The notes below the pieces were generated by a model. The model had not been told where the DNA came from. It searched no databases and saw nothing but the letters and a program-made list of their open reading frames with translations. Below, in pieces: positions 18,343 to 56,710 of a stretch of DNA of 64,000 nucleotides. The translations under genes were made by a program, and so were the position numbers. The DNA is from Callorhinchus milii (lineage: Eukaryota): assembly GCF_018977255.1 (NCBI RefSeq), contig NW_024704742.1:32056001-32120000 (forward strand), read 5' to 3'. Positions within the stretch are counted from its first letter, which is position 1. The number at the start of each line of letters is the position of its first letter.

Positions 18343-18662
18343 TAATAATAATAATAATCCTTGCATTTGATATAGCTCTTTTCACGTTGGGAGGACATCC
18401 CAAAGCGCTTCACAGAACACACTGTAAAGTGAATTGACTGTATATTTGTGGGCGAACGCGGCAGCCAATGGCGCACAGCAATGTCCCACAAACAGTCGTG
18501 GATTGAAAATGACCAATTTATTATTGTTTTTGGTTTTGGAGGGATTATTATTAGGCTCTGTGTGGAGTAAGGAAACTTGCCCAAGGTTTCACCCTGCCTG
18601 GAATTGAACTTAGGTCTCTCGCTTGCAAAGCAAGGGCTCTAACCCCTGCAGCTACAGGACTC
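18343..18662 (-). mobile_element. Full-length tRNA-derived SINE, L2-like tail variant
   Basis: Head, body and tail intact; shares diagnostic variants with 56393-56710. Confidence 0.9.
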
Positions 18663-19133
18663 AGATTATTGTGACCGTGGATCCAAATATCCTTCCTTCC
18701 TCTGAAGCACAACAATGATAAACTACAGTACATGGGAATGGTTTATAATTTGAACCCTTTCTACCTGCAGATTTATTACTTAATTTCAAGAATAAACAGA
18801 CAACCCTGACTGATCTGTGGCATCTTCTAACTTGTGAAAGAATTCTTGTAACTCAAAATGCCTAGTGCAATACCCTTTTTCTGCAAATAATCAATATACA
18901 TTAGTGTGAACAAAGGCTTCCAAAAAGGATTTTCTGCTTCATCATAAATAGGCTTTCTGCATATAAAATAATTTTTCAGCCACAGTTGAACATCGGGCTT
19001 TTCAAGCACACTGCCTGAAATTTATAAGGCGCAGCAAGCATTTGCACTTGTTCAATGCTCATAATATTTTATTTAGATCCATATGAGGAGAACCCACACA
19101 ATTAAACAAAGCTAATATTGCCACTCAATCTCC

Positions 19134-19254
19134 TTAAATGACCTGGGGTCTATAGCAGGCATCTGGTTGCCAGGTACGAAGATCAACTAGGACCCGATTC
19201 AGCTTCTGCATCCAGAGGTTGCGTTCCTCTTTAGTGTCTGCAGACAACCAGTTT
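19134..19254 (-). CDS. ANLN: ANLN exon 24 coding part ([40 protein letters not shown])
   Basis: tccag|A acceptor; TAA stop at 19136-19134; conserved C-terminus. Confidence 0.97.
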
Positions 19255-28200: not shown

Positions 28201-31200
28201 TTTTTAAATCACTTTAACATATTTTCTCCTCTTCTATTGGTTTCCCAGAAAAAGAACAATCCAATGTCTTAATTCAGGCTTGTGCTGCTGCTGAGGTTTA
28301 TTGAAATACACCAAGCTTAGACTAGGACTCACTTGAATTCCCTCCTTGTGGGAAAATCTTCAGCCCTTCCTTCTTTGAACCAACACAGAAGAGATGTAAA
28401 ACTAAAACTTGCCTTTTGGGAACAATATCCACCCCTACTTTTGGATACCATTACTCCAAAACATATGGAGAATAAACAAGTGGTGCTAAATATCTTGTAT
28501 TTCAAAGGACTCTTGTATTCCCCTCACAATTTGAACAGAAAAAAATAAATGTTTAAGTGAAAATGTGTAATCCAATCTGGCTTGGATGGGTTACTGCCTG
28601 CCACATACCCAGCTGACCAAAAAAGTGATTAGATACAAGGAAATCTGCTCACTCCACTCTACTGAGAAAGTTCAGTTGTGGATTGCCATGCACTAGAACC
28701 ACCCAAACCTTGGACCACCAACACATTTTCAGCCGCCCAGCATAAAATGAACCCTCTTCCAGCCAAACATATCTTCAAATTGGAATGGACCAACAATAAA
28801 TATGTAACTTGCTCATTTTAATTTAAGTGTGGTGAAACACCATGCAAAATTGATAGATTAAACTTACTGTGATTGAAGTAAGTAGTCTCTTTGGAGTTAT
28901 AGCCTGAAGATAAAGTGGAAAGAATGTTTTGGTTATTGAAGTGGGTCAGTAGTTCTACATTAATGCATTCCCAATAGCTGCATGTAACAGCTAGTTCAAA
29001 GGGTTGCCTTCTTGAGCTTTTAGGTCCAATCTCTAGTCACAGATTGGAACTAAATATACACTTCCAGTTTTGTGATTTTCCACATATTAACTTTGATTTA
29101 TCTGCCACCAATGAACAGTTAACAAACCTAATGGTGATGGTGAAAAGAGAGCAATCACAAGCCTGACTAGTAGAGGTTTCCTGCCCCTATATATCAGAAA
29201 CAATACAGTTTTAGTCACACTGACCAATACAGTGCATCCTTTATCTCAAGAAAATGTGAACAGGAAAACAAAATGAGATCACATGCATATACATAAAATT
29301 AAAAATATATTTGATAGCGCTTTTCACGTCTTCGATACGTCTCAAAGCCCTTCACAGAATATACTGTAAAGTGAATTGACTGTATATTTGTGGGCGAAAC
29401 GCGGCAGCCAATTGCACACAGCAGTATCCAGTTGAGTATTGTTTTTTTTCTTGAGGAATTATTATCAGGCGTGTGAAGTAAGGAAACTTGGCCAAGGTTT
29501 CGCCCTGCTGGAAATCAAACCCAGGTCTCTCGCTTGCGAGGCGAGTGCTCTAACCACTGAGCTACAGGACTCCACTGTTACACTTAATCCAAGTGATTTT
29601 TCATGTGCAAAGCCTGGATACAGAGCATTATAGTTCAACTAGATTATGTAATGGTCAACCATACAAAACTTTGTTGTGAAGTTAAAGGACACCAAAGATA
29701 CATAGGAACTCGGATGATTTTTCTCAACCTTAGTCTGTTGGCCAATTCTAGCATCCCACTGAGATCCAATTTTTTTTCACATATATTAAAACCACAACTC
29801 AATCCCAATGCTATGAGACAAAGGATGATCCAAGTCCGTGTAAAGTCACATTTTTATCAGAATTTGAAGAGGCAATGAATTGTAAGTCAGACTAATGGCA
29901 GCCATGTTTTTGCCCTCCTGTTGATACAATCTCACGCTACAAACACGACTGTTAAATTAATAGGTGTGCAAACCCTACCAAAATATAGAACCACTTTACA
30001 AAAAAAATCTATCAATGTTGGTGTAAGAAAAAGAGCCCATCACCATCATGCTGTGTGAATTGACATTCATCCATCACTTTGGACAATAATAAACAAACCC
30101 ACTGGAGTGCACATCTAGAAATAAAAACACCTCTGACTATTGGCCCACTCACAGTGTAAGACAGATAATATCAGAGTTTGATTGCTGAAAAGCATCCACA
30201 AAGGTTTTACTAAAAAAAAATGAATCATACCAAAGAGAAAATCAATTCCTGAAAGTAATGATATATTCCCAGATGAAGTGCAGAGGCTTTGCACATAAAC
30301 TATAGAAATAAAAATCATTTTCAAGTGTTGGCAGATTTCAAAAACGCAAACTCTATAGCAAGTGTGATATCAGAGGCTATAATCACTCTTCAAAAAACAG
30401 TTTACAAACAAATCTTCCAATGAAGACTAAAAATATTTTACAGATAGAATCTATCAGGGTTTTTTTTTTAAAAAAAGTGTTGAAACTTATAAATTTTGGC
30501 ATGAACTCCACAAATTTACATTTTAAATCCTCAGATTTCAGGACGCAAGATATTCATGTCAAATCCTTTAGCCATTTTGAGGGGATTGTGTGGTTAGGGG
30601 AGGTGTACAATTAAGTTATACCTCACTACATTATCATAGTTCAGGAAAAACATTTGCATTGCTCAACTGATTCCCCTCACAGCATTTACTTCAGATTTAA
30701 TCAAATCTCATGATTGTGCTGCACTCATATTTTACATGCTCCCACCTCCCTATCCACCTACATCAGCATAATGAAGAAATGAGTCTTGAATGATTAGTCC
30801 TGTACAAATTTCCAAATTCTTATGTTCAGAACAAATTTCCACCAAAACGTGGCTTTACCTTAGATTTATTAGTTTTTTTCTTCTTGTCAGTAGAACTCAT
30901 CTCCTGTCTCTGTGCCTAAAACAGAAACATTTTACACAAATACAGATACATTCAACTCGCAACATTCTCTAATAAAATATACTAACTCCTGGCAAGCCAG
31001 ATTTTAAAGCTAACTGCTAATCCTTACATTTAACATCAATAAAATAAGTAGAACAAAATATTTCCTAGCATTTCAAAAGAATTTTAAATACTGTACAGTA
31101 ATCCTGATATTTATTTGTGTACATACCAGACTGTAAACTTCAATTTCAATTTCAAAATCATTTGAGACATCTTGCCTAAAATTGAAAATGCACATTTTAG

Positions 31201-40200: not shown

Positions 40201-43200
40201 CGATACAAGAAATGAACATGCAATTGTGGAATATCCAGTTTATTCCACTCATGAGGATAACACAACTTTTTGATCAGACAAAAAAAGGGAGTTTTCTGTA
40301 TCAACAGAAAAACTAGAACATTCCATCAATCTTGATATTCTCTTCATACAACGTGGGAGGAACTTTAGTAGATCTTAACCATTGTAACAGAGGGCATGAA
40401 GTGCAGATAGTTTCTGAGACCCAAATGTTCAACGTATTCAATCATCAGTCTTAAGAACATAAGAATTGCTCGGCGAAAGAAGACCAAAATCCATTCAGTT
40501 CCCCTTCCACCATCCCGGCAGTCGCAGGCACACGTCATGGCCCAGAAGTGTCATTGCTGTAGCAGTTTTAGCATTTAAAAGAAGGTTCTAAATTTCTGAA
40601 AGGACATCACTGCTGAATAAAAGCAAAAACTGCTACAGGTTTACTTGCATTCAACAGAAAATACATCTAACATTTTTTATGGGGGTGCTGGGAAAGTAGT
40701 AATTAAAGCAACTGCAGCAATAATAGTGATTTTCCCCGTCCCAGTCAACTACATTACTTAGCGGACATAAGGATTCGAACCCATGACCTTTTGTCTGTAT
40801 TCCTCCTAGTAGTACTTATACTCGATTGGGCATCAAGGGAAATGCTGTTCACTAAAATCCCGACTCTTTTAGCACCAGTAGCAAAATCATTAGTCTTTCT
40901 TATCACCATAGAATTTCTGAATGACAAATTAGTCAGTGGTTTACATGAAATATACATATCAAAAAGCATTTCATACCTTGGGCTGCTTGGTAAATGAGCT
41001 TTCTCCTTTTTTTTCCGTAGCACCGACGTTGCCTCCCTGAAAACGATTGCGAATATTGGCCAGCTCTTTCTCACGCTCCTGAAATAATTGCAAAAGCAAG
41101 ACTATAAAATAGGACACAACATAACTGGCTTGAGGCTGATTTCCTGGACTATCGCTATTCTGATAAAGTAATTTCCACATAAAATCCTGGAATAGCCTCA
41201 ACTTTCATCATCTACATGTCACAAAATCCCTGAAGCAATCTTGTTCGGATTTTGCCAGTGTGTTTCCTTTGATTCCAACTTCCAACAACCTTCCTGGCTG
41301 ACAACGCTAGCTAACTGAACCAGTGGACCTATGTCACTCAATTCCTCAGCCTTGCCTCATTCTTGCCCATCTTCAGGTCTCGCCTGAAGATCTTCGACTG
41401 TGCCTACGGTATATAAATGCAATTTGTTGCTGAGTCTGAGCTCAGCCCTCTCCACAGCCAAAAAATGTTCCATGCTTTTGTCCCCATAAGGCTAGATTTG
41501 CCTGATGTTCTCCTTTGCTCCTCCTACATACACTCCAACTCATCCGAAGTTCTGCACCCATATTATCTCACCTTCAGGGTTCTCTGCGAAGGATTATTAC
41601 TATGTGGGCTAAACTATTACTTTTTCCAGAGATGCAACTCCTACATGATATGACTTTCTGCAAGTATTAAGATTAGCAAACCCAATTTCTGCATCTTCAG
41701 ACGTGGCATGTTTCAAACAACATGGTAGCACGGCTCATGAGCTAGGCCAATAGAAAAGTCTGGCCACACCTTTCCCGAATTTCCTGCCATAATGACCTAT
41801 GTCCACTACAAACCGCGCTCTCTCTGTGACTGTGTGCGTGTCTGTGATCAGGGCTCCCTCTGCCTCCTTGTCTTCCTCGAACTCTCTGCCGCCTTCGACA
41901 CTGTCGACCACTCCATCCTCATACACCGCCTCTCCTCTTTACTTAATCTTCGCAGACCTGCCGCCTGGTTCGATTCCTATTTCTCTCACCATCTCCACTT
42001 TGTTGCCTCTAACGGTCCCTCCTCCAGCCCCCGCACTGTCATGTCTGGCATCCCCCAGGACTCTGTCCTTGGCCCTCTCCTCTTTAATATCTACATACTC
42101 CCCCTTGGTGACATCACCCACAGACATGGGGTCAACTTCCAAATGTATGCGGATGACAACCAACTATCTTTCTGCCTCCACCCTCAACTCCAGGACCACT
42201 GCTGTCCTGACAGACTGTCTGTCGCACATCAAGTCTTGGATGAGGGCAAATTTTCTACAGTTGAATGTGAACAAGACTGAGGCCCTCCTGATTGGCTCAC
42301 ACCAGCGCCTCTGCACCTCAGGCTCTGGCAGCATCAACCTCCATGGTTGCACACTTCAACTCACCAAGCCATCAGGAGCCAAGGTGTCTTTTCTTCCCCC
42401 ACATCCAAGCCATGACCCGCTCTGCCTTCCCTCACCTCCGTAACATCGCCCGACTCTGCCACTACCTCACCCCTCAGGCCGCTGAAACTCTTGTTCATGC
42501 CTTCATCACTTGCAGGCTCGACTACGCAAACACCCTGCTTGTCGGCCTTCCCAACCTCCCTCCACAGGCTGCAGATAATCAGGTACTCTGCAGCCCATGT
42601 CCTCTCCTGCACCAAACTCCGTGCCCCCATCTCCCCCATTCTCGCCCGACTTCATTGGCTCCCTGTCCTTCAAAGGATCCAGTTCTAGATCCTGGTCCTC
42701 ACCTACAAAGCCCTCCATGGCCTCGCCCCAGCCTAATAATAATAATAATACTTGCATTTGATATAGCGCTTTTCACGTCTTCTAGATGTCTCAAAGCGCT
42801 TCACAAAATATACTGTAAAGTGAATTGACTGTATATTTGTGGGCGAACCCTACCTCTGTGACTTCCTAACCCCTACCAACCCGCCCGCTCCCACCGCTCA
42901 GCTGGCTCCAGCCTGCTCCACGTCCCCCGTCCCACCATTGGTGGGAGAGCCTTCAGCCACTCTGCCCCCAACCTCTGGAATTTCATCCCCCAATCACTCA
43001 GTCTTGGCCCCTCCTTAGCCTCCTTCAAGTCCCGCCTCAAAAGCCTCCTCTTCAACCATGCCAGTGGCCACCTCCCTTCCCCTCCCTTCTCCCCCCGACC
43101 CCAACTCGGGTCTGAAATGCTGTACACTGTCCAGTGCCTTGGGACGTCCTCCCGATTTGAAAGGCGCTATACAAATGTAATCTTGTTGTTGTTAGTGTGC

Positions 43201-46200
43201 GTGTCTCTCTCTCTCTGGATCTCTGAGTCTGTCTCTCTCTCTCTGGGTCTGTGTCTGTGTTCAGTGCCAGCACTGAGAGGCAGGAGGTGGTGAGCTCCTG
43301 TAGCTTCGCGGTGTCCCCCATCACCTCCACCCAAAAAAAGGCCACTCAATTTTTGTTCAAGAAGCAATTAATAATTTGTTTTGCAACAATCTAATGTGTT
43401 ATTTCCTTATGTTTAGTTTTTAATCAATAAAGTGAAAAAATGTAGCAATAAAATGTACCTCAATAGCACCAATCAACAATCACATTTTCCCCCACAAAAT
43501 CTAACAAAACCCTCAGCACTGCTAGCAACAAGCTCTGCAATTTTTCTCAAAAATGTCCGTACTTTTCTATTAGCCCAGCTCATGAGTTCCTTTTTCAACC
43601 ACCTAGCACAGGTGAAGAAGCTTCCTACAAAAACCAATGGGTTGCATAAGGCTCTCATACTCAACTGGTATTTATATAACAGCCTGGAAGAAACCAAGAC
43701 AGTTCTGCTCCACTCACTTGCGCTGGAGAGATTAAAATAAAAACACGAGTGGTCTACAAATGTAGATCAGACCCCTCACCAGTAAAATGCAAAGTCAGAC
43801 CTGTTTAAGCTGCTGCGTGAGGCTTGCTGTGGTGGAGAGCTCCTGCTGTTTAAAAAGCCTCTCCTGGATGGCTTTTGTGTTTGGAGTAACAGGAGATTTC
43901 AGCCCAGGAGTTGGTGCTTTGGGGTTTGATGCACTCCGCTCCTGGCAGCGTTCACTAAACCTTTCCAGGAAAGACTTCACCCCTGTTCCACCTACAACAC
44001 ATTGGGAGATTTGCAAGGACAATTACGATTACGGTAGGGTATGCCATTAATTCAAATAGTAAAATAATAATCCTTGCACTTGATCCTTGCCTTTCACGTC
44101 AGGAGACATTCTCAAAGCGCTTCACAGGAATGTACTGTAGAGTGTAATGCCTGTGATAATTTACGCACAGCAACATGCCACAAACAACTATCAAGTGATT
44201 GATCCAAGTTGATTTGGGGGATTGTTGATCATGACACTGGGAGAAACTCCCTTCTCTTTTGAACAGTGCCAACAAACCCCTACATATAAATTGGTCACTC
44301 ACACCATGGATTTTTGCGGGACATTGTAGTGTGCAATTGGCTCCAAAAATACAGTCAATCCACATCTCAATTACATGATAAGGCGCTATACGAAATGCAA
44401 GGATTATTAATATTATATGAACAAGAGAGATAACATTACTAGTACCAGCTTTCAGTTAGTTGTTCCTGTAACCAAATAAAAAGAACCAGCCCTTCATGGT
44501 TAAAAGGGCATTGAGCCTTCTACAGGACTAGGAGTTATTCAGCCATGAGACCAGTAGATATTATTAAAAGTGTTGTGGTGCCAATTCAAACATGACAATG
44601 TGTTAGTAACCACGTGCTATTCCAGGAAACTGACCAGAGCAATGTGGCCTGGAACAGCTTATCTGCCCTCTTGACAGCAGGTTGTGTCGGGAAGTAAAAG
44701 AGGAAGTCTCCCTCAAAAATCAGAAGCCATTAAGTTAAGAGTCAATATAGAGTAGAAACAAGATCAATATAGAAAACAGTAACAATTATCAGTCAAGCTA
44801 TTCGATACAATTGTCTGGCCTAAAGACATGAACAACAATTCCTCTTTCTGACTTTGCACAATGGTTTGTCCAAAACTGGCCTGAGCTTTCTATGGCCTGG
44901 ACTTTGGGTGGAGTCTGTTGTTTCAGCAGCACTGCACGGGACACGAGATAAATTTTTAAAAATTGCTGCATTGAGTACAATTCTTAGCAATGTGATAATC
45001 AGCTTTCACTCCATTACTCTATTCACCCACATTATGGCAAAATTTGCAAAACTGTACCTGGGGTTAGATTGCCTCTGGACTGAAGCGGAGCAGTGGTCCC
45101 TCTGGTTGGCTGATCTCTAGGCTGGGTTTGGTGCTGGGCAAACTCTCCTTTAGAAGGCAGTAGATTACGCTGTTCAGTTTTCTTTGGACTAGAGTTTACC
45201 TGATCCAGTTTAAGTGTCCCTTTAGGTGCCAGTAGCTTGGGCAACTCAGTTTTCTTCAGACCTGAGTTGGCCTGAGCTGACTGAAGTGGCCCTTTAGTTT
45301 CCAATGGCTTGGGCTCCTCAATTTTCTTCAGATTCAAGGTGGCCAGATTTGGGTTAAGTGGCCCTTTAGTTTCCAATGGCTTGGGCTCCTCAATTTTCTT
45401 CAGATTCAAGGTGGCCAGATTTGGGTTAAGTGGCCCTTTAGTTTCCAATGGCTTGGGCTCCTCAATTTTCTTCAGATTCAAGGTGGCCAGATTTGGGTTA
45501 AGTGGCCCTTAGTTGCCAGGGTCCTCGGCTCCTCAATTTTCTTTAGATTCGAGCTGACCTGATCGGAGTTAATTGGCCCTTTAGTTGCCAGTGGTTTGGG
45601 CTGCTCAGTTTTCTTCGGACTAGGTGGAATCACTTTGGTTGATTGAACGGTCTAATAATAGGGAAGTAAAGAACATTTAGCAAAGGGAATTACATCTAAT
45701 ACTATGTTTAAACATCGGAAAACGAAGCGGACATCCCAAAGAAATCTTAGAAATTTTTTACTTTAGAAGACTAAGATCAAGGTATTGGTTATTTAATTGA
45801 AGAAAGAAATTTCCAGAATTAAAGAAAGTTATGTTTTCCTATGTTTCTGTTCCTTCATTTTGATTTGCTTCTTTTTCAAGGAATTCCGCACACACCCTCT
45901 TCCAGCTGAAAGGGCAGCTTCGATTCCTACACAAGCACAACTGTCTGTTGATTCTTCCACTCTCTCTTTCCGAAAAGACAAGCACATTTGAAACACGGAG
46001 CACCTAGGAGAATAACTGGTAGAAATCTGCAAGCCTCGTCCTTTTCTTACTGTCAGAAATCAGCAATAGAAAGTAATTTTGAACTAGGACATTTGCAAAC
46101 ATTGTATCACATATCCTTTTTTAATCCAAGTATCTGCCTGCAATTTATGGTTGTGGAAATGGCACACATAATAAAACAAAGGGTGCTTTAAATCAACAAA

Positions 46201-49200
46201 CAATAGAACCGCAGATCTCATTTGGTTATCAAACAAATGATCTAACTATTTGAGGGTTCAATTTTGCTCCACTGATTTAATAGAACTCTTTTTTGCAAAA
46301 TATTCACTTTGAAAAATAGGTAAAGATTCGCAGATTCTTGCTTTAGAAGTTACTTTTCAGAAACAGAACTGCAATCTTTCTCCTACCTGCAAGACAACGG
46401 GGGCTGGCTTATGGACGACTGTTTCCACAGGCCTTGGATCTTGCCGTTTAACACTGCTGCTGTTGACAGTAGCCGGGGCTCTGCCTGAAACTGGTAAACA
46501 AGCAGTACCAGGCTGTCCTTGCGGCTTGTTTTGCTTCGCAGTTGGGCGGCTCAAGTCATCCTCCCAGGATGAAATTGTTGCTGCAAGATTGTTCAAGCGT
46601 GCTCTCCTTCCAGCTGGAGTACCAGGCTGGACACTGGTCGGTGTCTGGTGAGGTGGTGGTGGAGATGCTTGCCTGCACAATTTTACTGGTGATGCTACAT
46701 CTAAGTCAAATGCGTTACCTATTTGTGATGTAAAGACAAGCCATGATCAATTGAATCCCCTTGGCAATTCAAGTGCACTTCACAATGTGTCCAACAGCAG
46801 ATGGTTTAAATAAGCATTTTCTTAAGAGTAGTTTGCCTAACAAGCGGTGCCTACAATTGGGGTTAGCAAACAGGTGATCAATTCTTTTACTGCAGTTTAT
46901 ATTTCCATATAATGCATTTCCCAGATTAAATACAGTGCCGACAAACTAGTGGTTATACAGTATTATGAAAAGGAAGAATGAAGATTTCTAATCTAAAACA
47001 TTCCCAGCCAATTAAATTGTATTCTCTTCAACCTCATAGGAAATTCTTGCAATTTAATGTAATTTCCACAACTGCTCAGATCGTCATTTCAGACCAGCTT
47101 TATAGTGAAAGTCTCTTTATAATTACTTTCTTCTTTAACCTTCACGGTGCCATTCAACATTGCAAATTCATCTGAATTTTCAAACATCAGTTAACAACAT
47201 GGGACTGAAAAATACATTTCATTAAAAAAAAATTCCACTGTACCTTAACTGGACTATGACTACAATTCTAAAGTTCTAAAAGTTGCTGCGCAGCTTCTGT
47301 TTGACCTGGATACGTCACTCTGGGGACCAGATCAAACTCAGTGTGAAAAATGCCCCAGACAGTAAGATGTCTGAAGGGTCTCACAATATTCATTTGATAG
47401 CAGCCCAGGAAAAATGACTCAAGCATTACATGAAACAAGTGCTGAAAGTACATTGATAGGGTATTTTACAGGAGGAGGCAAGAGGGGATAAAAGCTGACA
47501 TTCTCGCCAGGCTATTACTGTACCAGTATTACTAGGCCAATCAGCCAGCTCAACAGCTATGCTTTTTATAAAGGAATTGAGGAAAGTTCGAGGAAAGTAT
47601 GCACAAGGATCCATGGCCTTCATCGGACAAAAAAAAAAAACAATACCCGCAAGCACGTTTTGTGAACATTTTGCAACGGTGCTGAGAATACATCAGCAGT
47701 GGCCTGGAATACCACTCATGGACGACCATGACTGCCATAGTGGGTTGGTTCAATTCCAGTTCAGTTCCGAGGAGACTTGCTTACCTCCCCCACCCCAGGA
47801 AGATAGAGCTATGATTAAAGAAAAATGTGTGTCTAAAAAAGTTTTACTTAAAAAAAATTATTCTTTGGAGGAAACAACAAAATTGTCACATTATGGTGAC
47901 AAAAGGCACTTCCTATGGGTTTGCTACTAGCAGCAAATTAAAGTACAGAGGCCTCTAGTGGGAAAAGATGTGCATTTCTGGAGTTACTCAATATTACTTT
48001 TTTTTGTATTTTGTCTAATGTCTTTGTATTTTTCCCCATTTTGGAGGCCTTCATTGTGCTTCCTAATGCATCAAAATATATCTACCTGTTAAACACGCAC
48101 CATTTTGTGGGGAGAGTGCAAAAGAATGCAGTTCTATAGCATTAATACCAACCAAGTCTTTTGTTAGTGCTGCATAAAAACAGTAAGTTTCATTAAAAAA
48201 GGACAATGCGCTCATCACAGTACAGAAGGTTTTCTTTGGTATTTCAAAGTGATATGATCTAAAATCTCCTTTGCAAAAAGAAAAATTACAAGCAATGTCA
48301 TGATAACATGATGCATGAGCATTGTAATGATTTTAATACAATTTAGTCTCTTCCTCTCCTGAAGACCCTGACGTAGACCAGAGTACAGCTCCTCAGGGCC
48401 CAGCAGTACCATATCCAACAACTTATACTAGGTGTTGGCAGGCAATGTTGAAACAAATGGAACCAAGTCCAGTATCATCTTCACCAAATGCACATTTTTT
48501 TCAGTAGAGGCATTATTGATAAGGATTATAAACAGTAGGAGACTCAACATGGAGCCTGTGAGCTCAACTAGAGCCAGCCCCTCCCCTAAACATTACTTTT
48601 GCCTTCAATTTGAATCGTTAGCTCCAGTATATAAAAGGTCACAGTGAAATCTACAAATTCACTCTGCTGTATGCGATTAGTTCTTACCATCACCGTCCCA
48701 GTTCTGCCGCTGCGCAGCCAATTGCTGCATTCGATTCTTTACAGAGGCGGCTGTCGATTTAGGGTTCACATCTTGCACTTCCTGCTCCTGGACTAATTCG
48801 GCAGGTTGGCTTGCAGGAGGTACTACAACAGTAGTAGCCATAGGAGTTTCTGGCTCCTTGTTTTCCACACCAGAAACTGCCGTTTCAACTTTGTCTGAAC
48901 AGCGTCTTTTGGATGGAGAAGGCTTGGTAGAATCTTTCACTGAATAAACCAAAATAGTATTTGTTAGTACATATGCATGATGTGCAGAGAATACTTGATA
49001 TTTAGACAAAAGTTATACCACAAGTGATTCTACACTAATATAAAATGCAAGGAATGTAAATTGCAATTTGGTAAACAAACATTTAAATGCTCAAGTTCTG
49101 GCGAAGGCAGTAAGCAGTTGTCTTACACATTACAATCAATTGGCCACAGTGCCTGGGATAAAGAGAAAAAAAAGTCAGGATTCCTGCCTCATTACCATTC

Positions 49201-52200
49201 AAGAAACCTTCTTTTACATCTGTGCAAGAACAGAATCGTAGGTTTTCAGTGGCCATTTAAGACGGGCATCAAGACACAAATTTATAGCCCCGGCAAGAGT
49301 TCGCACTTTCAAAAGAAAAATTGCAAAAACACAAGAACAAAACACGCTATTCAGTCACGCAAGAGTTCAACGGACAAATCACTAACTAGAAAGCCATCCT
49401 TGTTCAGGACTACAATAGTTTGGCTGTTTGACTACAACACAGTTTGACTCAAGCTCCCAAATTTCAAGATTAAATGATGCATACACATCTTGGAACAGAA
49501 ATATTACTCTCATAGGATGCTGAATTTTGCACTTTCTATATAAAATTATATTTCTGGCATAAACAATAATAATACTTGCATTTGATATATAGCACCTTAT
49601 CACATCTTCGAGACATCTCAAAGCACCTCACAGAATATACTGTAACATTAATTGACTGTATATTCTGTGGGTGAAACACGGCAGCCAGTTGCAGACAGCA
49701 GTGGATTAAACAAACAGTCGTGGATTAAAGTGACCAATTTATTATTATTATTTTTAATATTTCTTCTACTGAATAACTCTTACCTTCCTCAGCAGCTTCT
49801 GAAGGTTGGTTATTTGCTTCACACAAAGGTTCCCTGATCCTTTTTGCAATTTGTCGTCCAGCTGCCGTTGGTCTTTCAGACATCTTTTTCTGGAGATTTT
49901 CTCGTCGAGCTCGCGTTCGTTCAAGTAGTTTCTAGAGTAGCAACAATTCAATATACGACATTACATAATAAGTGGAAATCACGTCAATCATTAAGAACCA
50001 TTTAATTATTTGATATTTCAATAAGTCCCTAATTTCACCGAATTTTTTTTGCTCAATTCCCCTCGAATCCTGTTAAGAAAAAACTCCCTTCTGTATTGCC
50101 ATGGGATCTTTAAAGTTCACCTCACGGGGAGATGGAACCTTGTTTTTTTAAAAATTTATTTTAGCAATGCTTTAAATGAAACAGTTTAGGGGATGAGATG
50201 TGGGATTTAATGCTTGCTTTGCCCAAAGTTCTTAGTACTTTAGTAAGTCCAGTAGTTTCTTCAACCTCTGAAATGACTGCCTATTTATCTGTAAACAGAG
50301 CTTTAAATAACGATTGCTGGACTCTTGCCAAAAAGACTCTTCCTTCAATTTAGGTAGAAGTGCTCAGAGGATAAGAAACTTCAAATGGCTTTAGTTGAGG
50401 GTATCAAATCACAGCTCTTCACAGGATATATTTACATACCTATAAGTACAATACTAAACATTGAGTTAACCTTGACAATACCTAGATGTGACTATTACAA
50501 AGGTCAGAACCGAACACAGCATGCTAAGAACTACATTGGCAGGTAAGATAGAATGACTCAGTAACCAATTGAAACATACCGGAAATTAATTTATAAGATA
50601 CAACTCATGCATTTTAACATGGCAATAATTTAAAATGGGTTAACGGTAACTTTTATAAAATAGCTAACAGCGCTCTTAACTGACCCAGTTAACGCTTACT
50701 GATACAATACATTGTTAACAGTGCTTCAGGCAGGGTTAGTTACCATGTATGATCACATCATTGTGGGTGGGGGAAAACATAAATCCACATACCTACACTG
50801 TAATGCAGTCACTGATGCAATTGTTTTAATGATTAAGAACTATGCAAGGAAAGTGCATTGTTAGTTACCACGAGCAAGTGAATAGAAATATATCAGGTCA
50901 CTTTAAAAAAAAGCATATAAGAGAGAATTATTTTATTATTTACTGTAAATTGAAGCAAAATGCTTGACAAATCTTTGCCAGACATTACCTAAAATGACCT
51001 AATGAATAACTTTGTATTTTTTTATATAAAATAACACTTGTTCTTGGGTCGGTTGATTTTTCCTGCATTCATAACCACTTGAATAGCAATACATTTGCCT
51101 TGATCTTCCTTTCCTCCCTCCTCAATGATCCCTATTGAGCCTATGGAGGGAGGGCCTCCCCAACTCCTCCCTCCACAGGCTGCCGATCATCCAGATCTCT
51201 GCAGCCCGTGTCCTTTCCTGCACTCTGCTCCGCGACCCTATCACCCCCATCCTCGCCCGACTCCACTGGCTTCCCATCACACAGAAGATTCAGTTCAAGA
51301 TCCTGGTCCCCACTTCAAAGCCCTCCACGGTCTTACCTCTCTGACCTCCTAACCCCCTACCACCCTGTTCGCTCCCTCCGCTCAGCGGGCTCCGGCCTGC
51401 TTCATGTCTCCCACTTTCTCGCCCCACTATAGGCGGGCGGGCCTTCCGCCACTCTGTACCCACCCTGTGGAACTCCATCCCGCAGACCCTTCGTCTCGCC
51501 CCCTCCCTCGCCACCTTCAAGACCCACCCGTTGTCTGTCCAGTGCCTTGGGTCATCCTCCAGACGTGAAAGGCGCTATACAAATGTAATTTTGTTGTTGT
51601 ATTGCCTTTGTGAAGCCCTAAGATATTCATTCTATAATCAAAGCACCATATAAAGTAAAACAGTTAGCATCTCATGGCCAAGCAGTTATTGCGGACTAGG
51701 AAGGTTCAAAAAAGCAGTTATATAAATTCCAGTACCGTACAGTACTGAATTTGGAGTTTTGAACTCACTCTGCTGTAAATCTATCAACAGCGCTTCATTC
51801 ATCCAGGCAACTGAATATTTTAGGAGTTGAATCATTGTGGTTAACGAAAGATTTGGATTTCAATCACTTGGCTTCATTACTCCAATGATCTACATTTCAT
51901 TTTGCCACATCGCACTTTCTTCTGATTTAAGAGGACAATTATGTTTTAAACAGCATTGGAATGTGTTGAAGCATTTGCCAGTTCTGCCAACCAAACCCTC
52001 TGACCAAATGTTTATTGAAACAGATCGTTCATTCCTCAAGAATGTAGGTTTGACACGTGACTCAAAATTCAAATTTTACTGGACTAACTGGTCTCCTGTA
52101 CAAGTGATTTGAAAACACCGGACAAGATTTTAAGTTTTATTTATCACAGCCTATCTCAGCCCTTTTTAAGGACCTTGGACAGGAAAACTATTTGTCTTCA

Positions 52201-55200
52201 AGTATAATGCAAAGCAACTCATGCATTACAAGTTGAGCTTTCAGATTTGAAGCAGAAAATGTTTTTTGAAGTATTGTCCTATATTAATTAAGCTCGAGGT
52301 CAAAAACAATTAGAGGGGAAAAAGAATAACAGAAACTTAATTGCGAGCTTTGAAAAAGGTGAATCTCATTATTGCAACCGTGTGATTAGCAATACTCATT
52401 CAGTACAATTGATTGGATTTTTCACTCATTCTGCCCCCACTTTCTGAAAATCCACCTCATTCTCTTCCTCGCCACCTTAACATCCACCTAAAGATCTTTC
52501 TTTTCAACTGTAACTTTGGTCACCTCTCAACCCCCACACCCCACCTTCACCACCTTCCTCTGCTTGCCCCAGCTATGGCGCTGTGAAATCTTTAAGATGC
52601 CCTAACGACATGAAAGGCTCTGCTTTTAAATGTAAAACTGTTGTTGTGGTTAAATTAAAAGATTTTAGAGCCGTTATTCTAAAAGTAATTAGATGAGGCT
52701 AGCAATACATTAAATATAAAGTATAAATTCTTATATTATTATTCTCTCTCCCCATGGAACCTTAGTTTAGAAAAGCAAGCACCTTCTTCTCCCCAACCAG
52801 TATATAGTGCTTTGGCACATCCAGTATTAACCAGTGGTAATAATAATAATCCTTATTATTATTAATAATTAAATAATAATAATCCTTGTATTTATCATGT
52901 CTTCAAGACGTCTCAAAACGCTTCACAGAATATATTGTAAAGTGAATTGACTGTATATTTTGTGGGCAAAATTATCGGTTGGGAAATTATTATTAACTTC
53001 CATGCTAATCAAGGCTTTTGCAGGAATCCAACCCCATCACTTGACGACTTCCAAAAATGGATTTATCGCTAGTGAAAAATTACCAGCTATTTGCATTATA
53101 GTGTATCTTTTCTTCACATCTGTTCACAAGGGGCCACCAGGAAGCTGCAAACCAGTCAACAGTACAAGTTAAGCTGTTTTAAGGAAATGGCGATGGGTGG
53201 GACTGAAACAAAATAACTAGTGTACTATACCTTTCTTTACATAAACCAGACAGGGGTAATAACTAACTTTTAACACACATTTTCAAACAAATTCATGCAA
53301 CTGTACTTGTAATAATTAGCAATGAAATACTATAAACCTAGATTGAGTACAGCCTTCAGTTTTCTATCTTTTTAAATTTGTCATTATTTTGGTGTTGACA
53401 CTGCACATCATCTAGTATTAAATTCTACGAATACTACCTTCTTCCACGTCACCATTTTTGATCGTGTTCAACAATCAATGTCCCTATTGAAACAGTTTAC
53501 TCTAGAAAAACATATGGAGGATAGGTTATAATTTGATATGGGACAAAACAGCAAAATAAACTTTATTTTTAAAAGACCTTGACAATGCTTTTGGTGATAG
53601 AAGGTTTGCCGACTGTGATAACATGCATTTAGAATCATCTGCTATCATACAGGGGGTCAGACTCCGTCTCTGTCAAGCCCTCTGGAACACTACCCTGTGT
53701 GAAGGGTGCTACATAAATACAAGTTGTTGTTGTTCACATTCACTTCCTTTAATCTTACCCAATCAAATCTGACTCCCTAATGCAATAACCTACAACCCCC
53801 ACCTCGCTTTATAATAATAATCCTTTCATTTGATATAGCATCTTTCACAACAGGAGGCAGTCACAAAGCGCTTCTCAGGATTTATTGTAAAGTGTAGTAA
53901 AGCTATATTTTTGCATGCGAACATGGTAGTCAATGTGCACATAACAATGTTCCTCAAACAGCCATGGGTGTATAGTCAAATTTATCTGGGGGGTTGTTAT
54001 CTATGACACCAGGGGAAACTCCCTTCTCTTTTTGAATAGTGCCATAGGATCTTTAAAGCCAACCTGACCAGGCAGACTGGACTTTGGTTTAACATCTCAC
54101 CCGAAGCTGGCACCTCAGCAATGCCGCACTCCGCAGGCAAAACATTGGAGTGTCAACCAAGACTATTTAAGTTCAAAGTCTCACCCTGGGGCTTGAACCC
54201 ACAACTTTTTGAATGAGAGGCTATCAACTGAGCTCGACTGATAAGTTATGATCTGAGCATATGAACTCAACTAATGATTTGACATTGTTGCATGATAGTT
54301 GGGGTTGCACCACAAGTGGGTTTATTAAATTGGCCAGGTTACAAATCTCACTCCAAAATACCACATAGCTTAGCAAATGTGTTTCACGACCAAAATTGTA
54401 TGCAGTATGCCAAATACAGCCTGCCCAAAGCATGAAGGGCCCTGAATTTAAGCAGAATAACCTCACAAGACCACTGTTCCTTGCTAATTCACAGATGTTC
54501 CTTTCTTGGAAGATGGTATACTAAATCCACTGTTCCACTGACCAGCTTTCAAAAGGTGTGCGAAAGTCACGAGAGCTGCTGCATATCATTTTTGACATAC
54601 CTGCTGGCGATTTCATGACATGCGTGTTCATTTAAATCATCAAGCTGCTATTAGTCTGACCGTAGCATCTGATTTACCGTAGGAAACCCCCTTGCTTTTT
54701 TTTTTGAAACAAATATCAGAATCAATATCAATGGCGGAACGCAATGCAAACTTTCCACGCAGATCCTATACTTGATATTATGCAGTCGTGCTAACGGTAT
54801 TGTGCAATACCTTCGAGACGGTCCAACAAAACCATTAAGAACAGCGGTCGAGAAGTGACAACAACGACAACAAGATTGCATTTATAGAGCGCCTTTCCTC
54901 ACGTCGGGAGGGACGTCCCAAGGCGCTGGACAGTTGGGTCGGGACCCGATCGGAGGGGGTGGGGGGGGGGAATGGTCAGGGGGAGGGGGGGTGGAGAGAG
55001 GAGGGGGAGGGGAGGGAGAGAGGAGGGGGTAGAGAGTCGAGAGGGGAGCTGAAGGCTCGGTCAAAGAGAAGACCCCTCCAGTAGCAGCAATGCCTGGGGG
55101 GAAGGGGGTGAATACAACATGGACAGAGGCGGCCCCGGGGGGGGGGGGGAGGCGCAGGGCTGGAGGGGGAGGCGGCCCCGGGGGGGGGGAGGCGGCCCCG

Positions 55201-55923
55201 GGGGGGGGGAGGCGGCCCCGGGGGGGGGGGGGGAGGGAGGCGGCCCCGGGGGGAGGGAGGCGGCCCCGGGGGGGGGGGGGGAGGGAGGCGGCCCCGGGGG
55301 GGAGGGAGGCGGCCACGGGGGGGGGTTGCGCGGGGCGGCGCAGCTCATCCCTCCCGAGCCAGAATTTGTGAGTTTTCGGGACGGGACCGGGGTCGGGGCT
55401 GAGGGAGAGGAAGAAAATAATACGAGTTCTTTTTTTGTATATATATATATATATATATAAAACATATATATATATGTACATATATCTATAGCTAATGTGA
55501 AGAAGGTATTCCTGAGTGAAAGGGGGTAAGTCGGACTCCCACACTTATCCAACGGGCAACACCCGGGACAAAGAAACAGGACCCGCCCGGGGGGGGGGGG
55601 GGGGTCCTCCCCTGATCCTACTAAAAGATCATCGGCCTCCGGACGGACCCAGTCATCGCCACCCACCCATCCATCTCCCTCCCTCCCGGGACGGAGGCCC
55701 CCCCTTCCCCTGGTGCCTCACCCCCCTGACCCCGGCTCCTTCACCTGCACCGCCACCCCCTCCGCCACAGAGAAGCCGCTTCCCCCCCCCCCACCCTTCC
55801 CCCGTGTCGGGCAAGAAGAGGCCTGGAGCGGCCCGGGGACGCAGTTTCAGAGCAGAGAGGAGCAACACAGGAGCAGGGGAGCGGCGGGGAGGGTGGTGCT
55901 GGTACCTGGGTGTAGGGATCCAT
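19134..55923 (-). CDS. ANLN: Anillin, whole spliced CDS span (24 coding exons, about 1219 aa after restoring 1 bp in exon 5)
   Basis: Exon translations match vertebrate anillin from [23 protein letters not shown] through the anillin-homology region to the C-terminal PH domain ([10 protein letters not shown]...[11 protein letters not shown]). Exon lengths sum to 3659 nt, or 3660 with one base restored. Confidence 0.98.
19512..19650. repeat. AT-only low-complexity tract grown from a SINE (att)n tail
   Basis: Follows the SINE 3' fragment at about 19425-19520. Confidence 0.85.
20029..20201 (-). CDS. ANLN: ANLN exon 23 ([57 protein letters not shown])
   Basis: Matches ORF 20025..20207; 173 nt, phase 0 to 2. 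Confidence 0.98.
22988..23095 (-). CDS. ANLN: ANLN exon 22 ([36 protein letters not shown]), PH domain
   Basis: Highly conserved PH-domain segment; 108 nt. Confidence 0.98.
23839..23925 (-). CDS. ANLN: ANLN exon 21 ([29 protein letters not shown])
   Basis: Conserved sequence; ttcag|GTT acceptor, CTG|gtaag donor; 87 nt. Confidence 0.97.
24585..24860 (+). mobile_element. 5'-truncated tRNA-derived SINE
   Basis: Family body and tail. Confidence 0.85.
26530..26642 (-). CDS. ANLN: ANLN exon 20 ([38 protein letters not shown])
   Basis: Conserved SPGG..AVR.SNF..VGSY motif; 113 nt, phase 1 to 0. Confidence 0.97.
26905..27290 (+). mobile_element. Deu-domain SINE (SacSINE1/AmnSINE1 superfamily-like)
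   Basis: tRNA-like head followed by gatgagacattaaatcgagg...tctgcctgttcaggtggacgttaagatcccatggcactattt, matching the Deu core as recalled. Confidence 0.75.
28067..28088 (-). CDS. ANLN: ANLN exon 19, 22-nt micro-exon (KSNIHTP)
   Basis: aacag|AAA acceptor, G|gtaagt donor; human has KSNIHSS; supplies the required phase 0 to 1 change. Confidence 0.93.
28868..28903 (-). CDS. ANLN: ANLN exon 18 ([12 protein letters not shown])
   Basis: Same peptide as human; ttcag|GCT acceptor, ACA|gtaagt donor; 36 nt. Confidence 0.96.
29311..29573 (-). mobile_element. tRNA-derived SINE with internal deletion
   Basis: Head ggagtcctgtagctcagtggttagagcactcgcc. Confidence 0.88.
30859..30915 (-). CDS. ANLN: ANLN exon 17 ([19 protein letters not shown]), polybasic loop
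   Basis: tttag|GCA acceptor, AAG|gtaa donor; 57 nt; human has DKKKKTSKSK. Confidence 0.95.
31127..31175 (-). CDS. ANLN: ANLN exon 16 ([16 protein letters not shown])
   Basis: Nearly identical to human [16 protein letters not shown]; 49 nt, phase 2 to 0. Confidence 0.96.
32393..32519 (-). CDS. ANLN: ANLN exon 15 ([43 protein letters not shown])
   Basis: Conserved [10 protein letters not shown] motif; 127 nt, phase 1 to 2. Confidence 0.96.
33313..33501 (-). CDS. ANLN: ANLN exon 14 ([15 protein letters not shown]...[21 protein letters not shown])
   Basis: Conserved [12 protein letters not shown] motif; 189 nt, phase 1 to 1. Confidence 0.97.
34761..35135 (-). mobile_element. Deu-domain SINE fragment
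   Basis: gggatctttaatatccacctgaaca...ggtttaacatctcatc. Confidence 0.7.
35505..35640 (-). CDS. ANLN: ANLN exon 13 ([23 protein letters not shown]...[11 protein letters not shown]), Rho-binding region
   Basis: Conserved QASQALNCC and EAEAERLLL motifs; 136 nt, phase 0 to 1. Confidence 0.97.
35873..36020 (-). CDS. ANLN: ANLN exon 12 ([29 protein letters not shown]...NIKQRMK)
   Basis: Conserved SIDAYRSQR motif; 148 nt, phase 2 to 0. Confidence 0.97.
36306..36660 (-). mobile_element. Full-length tRNA-derived SINE
   Basis: Intact A and B boxes, body and tail. Confidence 0.9.
37338..37492 (-). CDS. ANLN: ANLN exon 11 (LVSKT...[18 protein letters not shown]...LLY)
   Basis: Conserved KFQRTR.RAES motif; acceptor tacaaaag|CTG is an AAG type; AG|gtat donor; 155 nt, phase 0 to 2. 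Confidence 0.92.
37790..37980 (-). CDS. ANLN: ANLN exon 10 ([20 protein letters not shown]...[18 protein letters not shown])
   Basis: Conserved EMSVDD and [12 protein letters not shown] motifs; 191 nt, phase 1 to 0. Confidence 0.96.
38900..39043 (-). CDS. ANLN: ANLN exon 9 ([25 protein letters not shown]...DDERNP)
   Basis: ctag|CT acceptor, G|gtgag donor; KSSPL motif shared with human; 144 nt, phase 1 to 1. Confidence 0.87.
39320..39606 (-). mobile_element. tRNA-derived SINE
   Basis: Partly deleted head, family body and tail. Confidence 0.85.
39962..40145 (-). CDS. ANLN: ANLN exon 8 (ETDVSPLGT...VTSTESA)
   Basis: tgtag|GAG acceptor, G|gtac donor; open frame; 184 nt, phase 0 to 1; poorly conserved region. 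Confidence 0.85.
40977..41078 (-). CDS. ANLN: ANLN exon 7 ([34 protein letters not shown])
   Basis: ttcag|GAG acceptor, AAG|gtatg donor; 102 nt; corresponds to human ERQKELACLRGRF. Confidence 0.94.
41800..43193 (+). mobile_element. 5'-truncated L2 LINE with frameshifted RT domain, containing a SINE fragment at about 42733-42848
   Basis: [42 protein letters not shown] and LHWLPV motifs across shifted ORFs; (ttg)n tail. Confidence 0.93.
43801..43991 (-). CDS. ANLN: ANLN exon 6 ([18 protein letters not shown]...[14 protein letters not shown]...QQLKQ)
   Basis: Highly conserved anillin motifs; 191 nt, phase 1 to 0. Confidence 0.96.
45058..45651 (-). CDS. ANLN: ANLN exon 5, containing the 72-bp coding tandem repeat and an apparent 1-bp frameshift near 45509
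   Basis: ttag|ACC acceptor; ends NLTP-G|gtac, matching human TTPG|GTG. 594 nt as given, but the flanking phases (0 to 1) require 595. Confidence 0.88.
45141..45622 (-). repeat. Coding minisatellite, 72-bp unit, about 6.5 copies
   Basis: Equivalent positions at 45167, 45239, 45311, 45383, 45455, 45526 and 45598 (spacings 72, 72, 72, 72, 71, 72). Confidence 0.95.
46387..46700 (-). CDS. ANLN: ANLN exon 4 (DVASPVKL...[19 protein letters not shown]...PVVLQ)
   Basis: Conserved GRRxRLxNLAATIxSWEDD and QPGTACL motifs; ttag|AT acceptor, CAG|gtag donor; 314 nt, phase 1 to 0. Confidence 0.93.
48688..48939 (-). CDS. ANLN: ANLN exon 3 ([15 protein letters not shown]...[19 protein letters not shown])
   Basis: ttcag|TG acceptor, G|gtaag donor; 252 nt, phase 1 to 1; conserved [10 protein letters not shown] and SVKxRMQxLA motifs. 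Confidence 0.95.
49560..49750 (-). mobile_element. SINE 3' half next to the ANLN exon 2 donor
   Basis: Family tail and body. Confidence 0.8.
49784..49931 (-). CDS. ANLN: ANLN exon 2 ([49 protein letters not shown])
   Basis: ctag|AAA acceptor, G|gtaag donor; 148 nt, phase 0 to 1. Confidence 0.96.
51155..51600 (+). mobile_element. L2 LINE 3' end
   Basis: [22 protein letters not shown] in ORF 51135..51344; shared L2 tail. Confidence 0.88.
53810..54235 (-). mobile_element. Deu-domain SINE, near full length
   Basis: Reverse-complement similarity to 26905-27290 (aatagtgccataggatcttt...ggtttaacatctca). Confidence 0.75.
54858..55075 (-). mobile_element. L2 3' terminal fragment
   Basis: Tail nearly identical to the copy at 60803-61040. 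Confidence 0.8.
55126..55330. repeat. GC-rich minisatellite, gaggcggcccc(g)n, about 9 units
   Basis: Directly visible tandem units with variable-length G runs. Confidence 0.9.
55438..55490. repeat. (TA)n microsatellite
   Basis: Visible TA run. Confidence 0.9.
55906..55923 (-). CDS. ANLN: ANLN exon 1 coding part (MDPYTQ)
   Basis: Strong Kozak context gtcgccATGG; CAG|gtacc donor; human start is MDPFTE. Confidence 0.95.
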
Positions 55924-55982
55924 GGCGACCTTCCTCCTCGCTCCTGTCTCTCTCTCTCGCGCGCCCGTAAGCTCAGCTCTGG

Positions 55983-55996
55983 TTCAAATATTTGAA
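55983..55996. promoter_or_regulatory. Palindromic double CHR element TTCAAATATTTGAA
   Basis: TTTGAA on both strands about 60 bp upstream of the ATG. CHR is the MuvB/DREAM site of G2/M genes. Confidence 0.75.
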
Positions 55997-56252: not shown

Positions 56253-56392
56253 TTTGGTTGCACTGTGTGCCTGGGGGCTTCAGGCGGGTGCTTCATTTTT
56301 TTTTTTAAAAATTGTTTTTATTTAAACCTGCAAAACGCTTGCGGGTTTTTGTTTTCCCTTGAAGACCTTGCACGGTACTACTACTACTACTC

Positions 56393-56710
56393 ATAATAAT
56401 AATCCTCGCATTTGATATAGCGCCTTTCACGTCGGGAGGACGTCCCGAATCGCTTCACAGAACACACGGTCGAGTGAATTGACTGTATATTTGTGGGCGA
56501 ACGCGGCGGCCAATTGCGCACAACAATGTCCCACAAACAGTCGTAGATTGAAAAATGACCAATTTATTATTGTTTTGGGTTTTGGAGGGATTATTATTAG
56601 GCTCTGTGTGGAGTAAGGAAACTTGCCCAAGGTTTCGCCCTCTGCCTGGAATTGAACTCAGGTCTCTCACTTGCAAAGCGAGTGCTCTAACCACTGAGCT
56701 ATAGGACTCC
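56393..56710 (-). mobile_element. Full-length CpG-rich tRNA-derived SINE upstream of the ANLN promoter
   Basis: Intact head, body and tail with many CpGs retained. Confidence 0.9.

Follow-up and report, generated by a model that had tools for sequence, protein, structure and literature searches.

In-frame variable number tandem repeats in disordered protein regions form a general class, with which we compare here a tandem array of 72-nt units in the anillin gene of the chimaera Callorhinchus milii. The array lies in exon 5 of the gene, within a 64-kb stretch of DNA (hereafter the window; G000:C1:32056001-32120000, in an assembly of 991.5 Mb and 1762 contigs). We consider it likely that an ancestral SPKK-type unit expanded here recently and in frame, as a minisatellite whose unit number probably still varies, within a weakly constrained and probably disordered tether in the N-terminal half of the protein.

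Binding of anillin to filamentous actin has been mapped to residues 231-454 of the human protein, 255-418 of the Xenopus protein and 258-340 of the Drosophila protein, and binding to myosin to Xenopus residues 142-254, and the same table lists anillin as binding F-actin and as not enriched around G-actin (PMC7353083, Table 1). Much of the anillin N-terminus is predicted to be disordered (PMC12402178). The WH2 domain consists of an N-terminal amphipathic helix, whose conserved hydrophobic residues dock in the barbed-end cleft of actin, together with an LKKV motif (PMC8102491); an earlier, sequence-only reading of this DNA had proposed that the array is built of WH2- or beta-thymosin-like actin modules.

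The array and its place in anillin exon 5

Tandem Repeats Finder detected one array in the window (45210-45616; period 72, 5.7 copies, 86% matches, score 527), and cutting the minus strand at each KK codon pair resolved the region into 6.5 head-to-tail units, U1 to U7, with lengths of 72, 71, 72, 72, 72, 72 and 45 nt. The array, its units and the exons around it are, in window coordinates:

45140..45615, minus strand: 72-nt (24-aa) head-to-tail array, 6.5 units, U1-U7 (Tandem Repeats Finder, unit table and translations)
45544-45615, minus strand: U1, cut at KK codon pair
45473-45543, minus strand: U2, cut at KK codon pair
45401-45472, minus strand: U3, cut at KK codon pair
45329-45400, minus strand: U4, cut at KK codon pair
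45257-45328, minus strand: U5, cut at KK codon pair
45185-45256, minus strand: U6, cut at KK codon pair
45140-45184, minus strand: half-unit U7, cut at KK codon pair
45284..45510, minus strand: 227 nt of perfect periodicity, from the end of U2 through U3 and U4 into the start of U5 (155-nt identity run at offset 72)
45058..45651, minus strand: anillin exon 5, with 594 nt where an unbroken frame would need 595, from spliced joints in contigs X6 and X11 (below) and tblastn of P0001
46387..46719, minus strand: anillin exon 4, end of Anillin_N (PF16018, E 2.7e-16 on the open reading frame (ORF) 46360-46746; tblastn of P0001 140-250, 100%; X6 joint at 46387)
43801..43991, minus strand: anillin exon 6, with the conserved GVKSFLERF segment and its invariant columns (tblastn of P0001 425-488, 100%; X6 and X11 joints)

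U3 and U4 are the same at all 72 bases, U2 is 91.5% identical to U3, and the outer units share 68-81% identity with the inner ones, a pattern of identical center and diverged edges that the sequence-only reading had described, together with unit peptides that the minus strand encodes exactly as it listed them. The units run head to tail, their length is divisible by three and some copies are nearly identical, all as in an in-frame coding minisatellite. Across the 991.5-Mb assembly the 72-nt unit had five matches, all of them at two anillin loci.

The identity of the gene, also named by that reading, was borne out by Pfam, tblastn and spliced joints together. A 1201-aa protein named 'anillin-like [Callorhinchus milii]' (P0001) spans the minus strand of the window from 49931 to 19137 (tblastn), is 90% identical to the exon 5 ORF of the window, and carries in order Anillin_N (PF16018, 3.9e-24), the anillin homology domain (PF08174, 6e-41) and a C-terminal PH domain (PF00169, 1.4e-15). 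In the window itself, Anillin_N matched two exons upstream of exon 5 (E 1.5e-4 and 2.7e-16) and PH matched exons at the 3' end. The product of exon 5, rich in proline, lysine and glutamate, falls between Anillin_N and the GVKSFLERF segment.

To these we could add read contigs, built from 31-letter words over 43700-46800 for four runs from four studies (X1, X6, X8 and X11). A 2095-nt contig of X6 joins 43800-43989, 45056-45365 and 45509-45651 and then continues at 46387; since the stretches skipped at its joints 43989/45056 (the cut lying perhaps 2 further on) and 45651/46387 have the ends CT..AC, that is, GT..AG on the coding minus strand, this contig represents spliced RNA that includes exon 5. 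X11 has the same joint between exons 5 and 6 (43989/45056), whereas coverage by X1 is even over introns and exons. It is by these joints that X6 and X11 are taken to be RNA, none of the listed runs being recorded as such. Absence of exon 5 from transcripts, an outcome that the sequence-only reading had named as fatal to its proposal, was therefore not what we observed: the exon occurs in spliced, RNA-like contigs from two studies.

Ancestry of the unit and its CDK-type sites

A search with residues 100-480 of P0001 returned 571 matches, of which the best 120 were examined and 16 were aligned: P0001, 11 elasmobranchs (10 sharks and a sawfish), a gar (P0036), a sturgeon (P0049), chicken (P0095) and sperm whale (P0111). 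The alignment did not take in the other two models from C. milii, a second one from Chiloscyllium, two long ones from sturgeon, Galeopterus, or any further birds and mammals. In nine of the 11 elasmobranchs a pair of KKTE-type motifs is spaced by 24 residues, equivalent to 1.5 units, the wording being mostly (S/T)PKKTEE followed by SPKKTE(E)AKPLPAKGAF; the two catsharks have a single motif, or 0.5 units. The unit and its period therefore predate the split between chimaeras and sharks. In gar and sturgeon, SPxK-type motifs number four to six and recur roughly every 20-24 residues, and chicken and sperm whale have two degenerate SPxK units (SPQKTE, SPLKTE). The exon codes for 175 residues in P0001 (199 for the window if its frame were intact), compared with 166 in gar, 124 in sturgeon, 90 in the whale, 75 in chicken and 54-85 among the elasmobranchs.

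Measured against the aligned sequences, the chimaera lineage has added four or five units to an ancestral 1.5. The sequence-only reading had called the expansion recent and specific to this lineage, and both points agree with our data, the former through units that are identical in DNA and the latter through comparison with 11 sharks and rays at 1.5 or 0.5 units and with chicken and whale. Its picture of an amplified multivalent array holds as regards expansion in the lineage, but the multiplicity itself is not unique, since gar and sturgeon also have several SPxK motifs. Other holocephalans were absent from the best 120 of the 571 matches. A representative search (1.84 billion entries) gave one borderline match, P0121 (E 9.4e-4), which was rejected as a relative of the array because it holds an unrelated HKPRETRGPIET repeat, and the best score in the protein atlas was 0.78, below lead level.

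The core common to the orthologues, S-P-x-K-T-E, fits the minimal consensus of cyclin-dependent kinases (CDKs), S/T-P-x-K/R. Putative roles of SPKK as a DNA minor-groove motif or a nuclear signal were also considered but not adopted. In the chimaera the motif occurs twice, flanking the array, and the sequence-only reading had correctly noted that two units begin with it:

45610..45621, minus strand: S-P-K-K at the head of U1, a minimal CDK-type S/T-P-x-K/R site (translation ...PPSPKKTEQ; matching motif in most orthologues)
45179..45190, minus strand: S-P-K-K at the head of half-unit U7 (translation; S-P here in 13 of 16 aligned orthologues)

In the three remaining orthologues the last half-unit is preceded by other residues (NP in Cetorhinus, GP in Pristis and NV in gar). 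Across the 16 orthologue sequences, a CDK-type consensus is therefore present and conserved. Within the chimaera, S-P is kept only at the two outer units, the interior units having N-L or G-L in its place. Human anillin has 46 mapped phosphosites and undergoes a mitotic shift that depends on Cdk1 (PMC5230765); the matching human site may be a recorded phosphosite, but no relevant literature came up on ANLN and S323.

An old 24-residue unit with a minimal CDK-type site (S-P-K-K-T-E), present as 1.5 ancestral units in cartilaginous fishes, was multiplied in frame, as a 72-bp unit, in the chimaera lineage, presumably by unequal recombination or replication slippage between units. As the interior units exchanged S-P for N-L or G-L, the multiplication added length and KK/EE blocks and no further CDK sites. 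These blocks are weakly charged, the net charge of an interior unit being about +1 to +2.

Two copies of the locus and the number of units

Anillin_N matched a second place in the assembly, on contig C2, with equal score, and each of the probes taken from the window ends and from the 3' end of anillin has an inverted counterpart on C2, 99-100% identical. The twin of window positions 1-64000 lies inverted at G000:C2:~22128209-22191055, on a chromosome-sized contig. Over 10 kb (L005), the copies on C1 and C2 are 99.0-99.5% identical, introns included, and a MAFFT comparison of these 10 kb placed 33 of their 36 differences within 42299-45603. Six substitutions separate C2 from the window in exon 5, all of them nonsynonymous, and none was found in the other exons compared; a seventh exon 5 substitution, seen in X6 only (45198, V to A), is also nonsynonymous. 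The density of substitutions in exon 5 is intron-like between the copies. Two further differences concern the array itself:

45312..45383, minus strand: 72 nt, one whole unit, absent from the C2 twin (MAFFT, window vs L005; placement within the perfect tract arbitrary)
45508..45510, minus strand: one base deleted from U2, the plus strand reading CCCTTAG instead of the CCCTTTAG of other units; two ORFs in different frames meet here (window copy only)

The C2 twin, which encodes the annotated P0001, has 5.5 units and an intact frame, and the window 6.5 units. The two copies differ by exactly 72 nt, a difference that alleles, paralogues or an assembly error could all produce.

U2 has 71 bases, having lost a single A from an AAA run (ACTAAGGGCC, compared with ACTAAAGGGCC in other units), and the window accordingly holds two stop-to-stop ORFs in different frames, meeting at 45478-45508; reading on in frame from exon 4 leads to a stop. 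The sequence-only reading had given the letters of this second unit correctly but had silently joined the two frames, so that the break was overlooked. The C2 twin keeps the frame through an extra T at 45508. An X1 contig likewise has a T inserted behind 45508, and an X6 contig carries the intact string, found 0 times in the window and once in C2, so that the frame is intact in both of the runs that cover the position. The deletion sits in a homopolymer. The broken frame of the window does not belong to the gene; most likely it reflects an error of assembly, probably of sequencing, or else a rare allele, in a duplicated, haplotig-like copy.

The read contigs support the reality of the substitutions. 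A contig of X11 matches the window exactly over 45056-45233 and one of X8 over 44840-45251, and an X1 contig over 45486-45967 has C at 45603, as in C2; contigs of X1, X6, X8 and X11 are mosaics of window-type and C2-type variants. The substitutions of the window are real alleles, and the mosaic pattern points to segregating alleles of one locus rather than fixed paralogues. On the number of units these contigs are silent, since 31-letter words cannot count identical 72-nt units: the internal skip of the X6 contig (143 nt, two units minus the base missing in the window) says nothing about unit number, repeat contigs of 88 and 102 nt are likewise expected from such words on identical units, and the depth of the X1 repeat contig (10.3, compared with about 5-7) yields a ratio from which no copy number follows.

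Could the seventh unit and the frameshift both be artefacts of a misplaced, poorly polished haplotype copy, with only 5.5 units existing in nature? The duplication of the whole window on C2 is what such a copy would look like, as is the fate of a probe 300 kb along C1 (L024, C1:32420001-32422000), which is 100% identical to C3:56747177-56749176, the opposite 300-kb probe being unique. The homopolymer position of the deletion also fits, and C2, P0001, two further models (P0002 and P0003), X1 and X6 all show an intact frame or a shorter unit order. The substitutions, in turn, are real alleles with exact matches in X8 and X11, a clean 72-nt difference is the expected product of unequal exchange between identical units, and contigs blind to unit number say nothing against the longer form. 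We regard this account as a substantial possibility, although we lean against it. More broadly, the C1 region looks like a patchwork of blocks also placed elsewhere, either misplaced haplotype copies or very recent duplications; for annotators, this stretch of the assembly is duplicated, with a probable frame-breaking error in one copy.

The UniRef models P0002 and P0003, both from C. milii, keep the unit order of P0001 until they leave the array, from where they continue directly with VKSFLERF, so that the last 1.5 units and whatever follows in exon 5 are left out; additional substitutions (KKIEELRTL, EVQDLNPKS) occur in them. An internal donor for this jump (...ANSG to VKSF) was considered and rejected, as the residues mismatch the start of exon 6 in the window, and the jump is probably a model artefact combined with another haplotype.

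Other features of the locus lie outside the array. At C2:39888017-39888449, C4:55726808-55727240 and C1:80454720-80455037, sequences 96-99% identical to the final two exons of anillin (19000-19258 and 20029-20203 in the window) directly adjoin each other; at these three loci the 3' end of the anillin mRNA has been retrocopied in processed form, and the retrocopies stop short of exon 5, because the 72-nt unit was found at the two anillin loci only. The intron between exons 5 and 6 holds a very high-copy interspersed repeat (44012-44427), where summed word depth reaches ~5e5 for X1 and 1.7e5 for X6 and loose ends and joints are numerous, and stop-free translations resembling it recur at 18300-18638, 29302-29514, 49539-49724 and 56390-56563. 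In anillin intron 1, long proline- and arginine-rich open frames of low complexity and a TA-rich simple repeat occupy 54885-55717 (minus strand), just downstream of the exon encoding MDPYTQ (about 55744-55983).

Actin binding, constraint and comparison with described systems

Exon 5 matches residues 280-369 of the whale protein. If whale and human numbering agree (lengths 1126 and 1124), the exon would lie inside the mapped human F-actin-binding fragment 231-454 (PMC7353083), in keeping with its earlier assignment to the actin-binding N-terminal region. At the unit heads, L-K-K-I/T occurs in five of the seven window units and P-K-K-T in the other two.

The proposal of a WH2- or beta-thymosin-like actin module was not supported by Pfam, WH2 profile, helix or conservation. 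Scoring against the Pfam WH2 and Thymosin families, a check that the sequence-only reading had itself suggested, gave no match at E<=10 for any of 15 queries (among them the two ORFs, four single or half-shifted units, three units, and the whole of P0001); the HMMER filters drop most matches above about 0.1, and the array does not reach the gathering cut-offs of 23.1 bits for WH2 (PF02205) and 24.8 bits for Thymosin (PF01290). No PDB chain was matched by phmmer at E<=10. As a positive control, the genome was searched in six frames, which yielded 13 matches to WH2 and 3 to thymosin, all of them away from C1:32.10 Mb and C2:22.15 Mb. On an unfiltered profile of the 13 genomic WH2s, the chimaera exon scored -2.8 bits with only 'LKK-TEL' aligned, a score reached by 304 of 1000 composition-matched shuffles, whereas true WH2s scored 38-61 bits on their own profile; in 3 of the 8 species tested this profile gave no match at all.

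The amphipathic helix of WH2 is also missing. In interior units, the 11 residues before LKK contain two prolines, at positions where the 13 WH2s of the genome keep (A)LLxxI, and AlphaFold2 predicted no helix in the units, as expected from the caveat, already attached to the original proposal, that prolines make such a helix doubtful. The LKK positions are not specially conserved, an outcome named beforehand as refuting: P replaces the L in the first unit of all nine elasmobranchs, in the unit that precedes their half-unit (again in all nine) and in the two outer units of the chimaera, the second K varies between K, I and T, and the best-kept positions across species are E4 and the prolines. 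An actin-module mechanism is thus not supported, and on present evidence the array is no new kind of actin-binding module.

A likeness to beta-thymosin was nonetheless detectable at the level of the motif. The beta-thymosin exon of the same genome (L020; G000:C13:1068222-1068314, minus strand) has LKKIE, as do interior anillin units, followed by KNPLPTKES; its LKKIE...PLPTK stands against PLETK or LLPSK in the anillin units. Smith-Waterman comparison with thymosin gave best p values of 0.016-0.043 (2000 shuffles; uncorrected over 30 tests), and non-chondrichthyan orthologues gave p>0.1. On a three-sequence thymosin profile, the chimaera scored 2.0 bits, in the central strand only (45 of 1000 shuffles as good), and the Heptranchias exon 7.3 bits (0 of 1000 as good), against the cut-off of 24.8; in 6 of the 8 species tested, thymosin likeness did not exceed that of shuffles. 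We read this likeness, in terms of sequence, as marginal and probably composition-driven, spanning about 15 residues.

Each unit might still act as a WH2- or beta-thymosin-like grip on G-actin through LKK(T/I)E, in a multivalent array like those of Spire or Cordon-bleu. The five unit heads, the thymosin exon with its LKKIE and PLPTK, the uncorrected p values of about 0.02-0.04, the Heptranchias and chimaera profile scores and the location within the F-actin-binding fragment (PMC7353083) speak for such a grip; the family, structure and genome searches, the WH2 profile score, prolines in place of the helix (PMC8102491), the unconserved L and variable second K, and the six species without thymosin likeness speak against it, and anillin is reported to bind F-actin whereas WH2 and thymosin bind monomers (PMC7353083). 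On balance we find it very unlikely. It is highly improbable, too, that S-P-K-K-T-E...P-L-P-x-K is an old thymosin-like actin-contact strand with a CDK-switched serine, of which the chimaera multiplied a switch-less N-L version giving always-on weak contacts in allele-variable number; were this so, the serine would keep the strand off actin until anaphase.

Among the matches listed in literature searches, none had WH2 in anillin in its title or abstract opening (anillin with WH2), and anillin did not occur jointly with LKKT or with elephant shark. Co-folding of actin (P0194 1-371, a fused coelacanth model without the last four residues) and ATP with P0001 323-400 scored 0.00 in both runs and, having no controls, counts neither way; the actin models among the proteins listed were all fused or internally duplicated, and their alignment was too ragged for use. 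Intron-less frames of ~374 aa in L001 (1489-2613, plus strand; G000:C24) and L002-L004, with Pfam Actin matches at E 1e-109 to 1e-121, are actin-like genes or retrogenes and clearly not conventional actin, and conventional actin genes match exon by exon elsewhere in the genome.

The stretch encoded by exon 5 is probably disordered, as judged from a single-sequence AlphaFold2 model with a mean pLDDT (predicted local distance difference test) of 55.7 and no residue at or above 90. Between units, nonsynonymous codon differences far exceed synonymous ones. If the array were under selection as a multivalent binding site, for F-actin or for another partner such as myosin II or a kinase or phosphatase of mitosis, acting through weak KK/EE and proline contacts instead of a WH2-type fold and with the number of units tuning bundling or tether length, this would fit the location in the mapped actin-binding and bundling fragment (PMC7353083), the much better preservation of the first half of the unit (KKxExPKxLxxKG) than of the second, the recurrence of multi-unit SPxK arrays in gar and sturgeon, and an exon that is in frame and expressed. 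Such selection is harder to reconcile with 1.5 units in sharks and rays, 0.5 in two catsharks and two degenerate ones in birds and mammals, or with seven nonsynonymous substitutions of seven at intron-like density; the conservation among interior units is explicable by youth alone. We hold a selected contact to be unlikely.

We thus return to the expansion of a weakly constrained tether, against which several points weigh. The location inside the F-actin-binding fragment makes an actin-contact role possible. In the identical units AlphaFold2 placed strands that recur periodically but are weak (pLDDT 60-75), so that a folded repeat is conceivable, and 7 of the 24 positions are invariant in chimaera units (K1, K2, E4, P6, L9, K12, G13), which may reflect youth or some constraint. 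Seven nonsynonymous substitutions out of seven are not significant, the probability by chance being ~0.13 at a rough ~0.75 per site. As to the CDK-type unit, Cdk1 labels in vitro a human fragment, 371-607, that lies just outside the matching segment, and most anillin phosphosites were dispensable in the assay of the same study (PMC5230765). Finally, the count of 6.5 units and the frameshift occur in the window copy only, and the extra unit could be an assembly error.

Under this preferred explanation, each extra unit would lengthen a flexible tether in the actomyosin-binding half of anillin by 24 residues, and weak constraint on the precise sequence of this stretch would let such changes in length be tolerated. 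If so, anillin would offer a natural example of a disordered scaffold linker that changes length by whole units, with 1.5, 5.5 and possibly 6.5 units as a natural series for the question of tether length.

Set beside described actin-binding repeats, the array resembles WH2 in being a short motif in a disordered stretch, with LKK(T/I) at five of seven unit heads and in tandem within an actin-associated protein; it differs in having no amphipathic helix, no profile match and an L that is not conserved across species, and WH2 binds actin monomers where anillin is reported on filaments (PMC8102491, PMC7353083). With beta-thymosin it shares a central strand, LKK(I/T)E followed by P-L-x-T-K or L-P-S-K, above shuffles in two of eight species, but lacks the flanking helices and a Pfam match and needs a two-residue gap, and no likeness survives correction for the number of tests except that of the Heptranchias half-unit. 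With coding minisatellites it has in common 72-nt head-to-tail units, an identical interior with diverged outer units and a copy difference of one unit, the difference being that the locus here is an essential cytokinesis scaffold, with variation known from two assembly copies only. The anillins of other jawed vertebrates have the same S-P-x-K-T-E core at the same exon position between PF16018 and the GVKSFLERF segment, in elasmobranchs with the same 24-residue spacing. Among the aligned anillins, only that of the chimaera has units identical in DNA, and its interior units have exchanged S-P for N-L or G-L.

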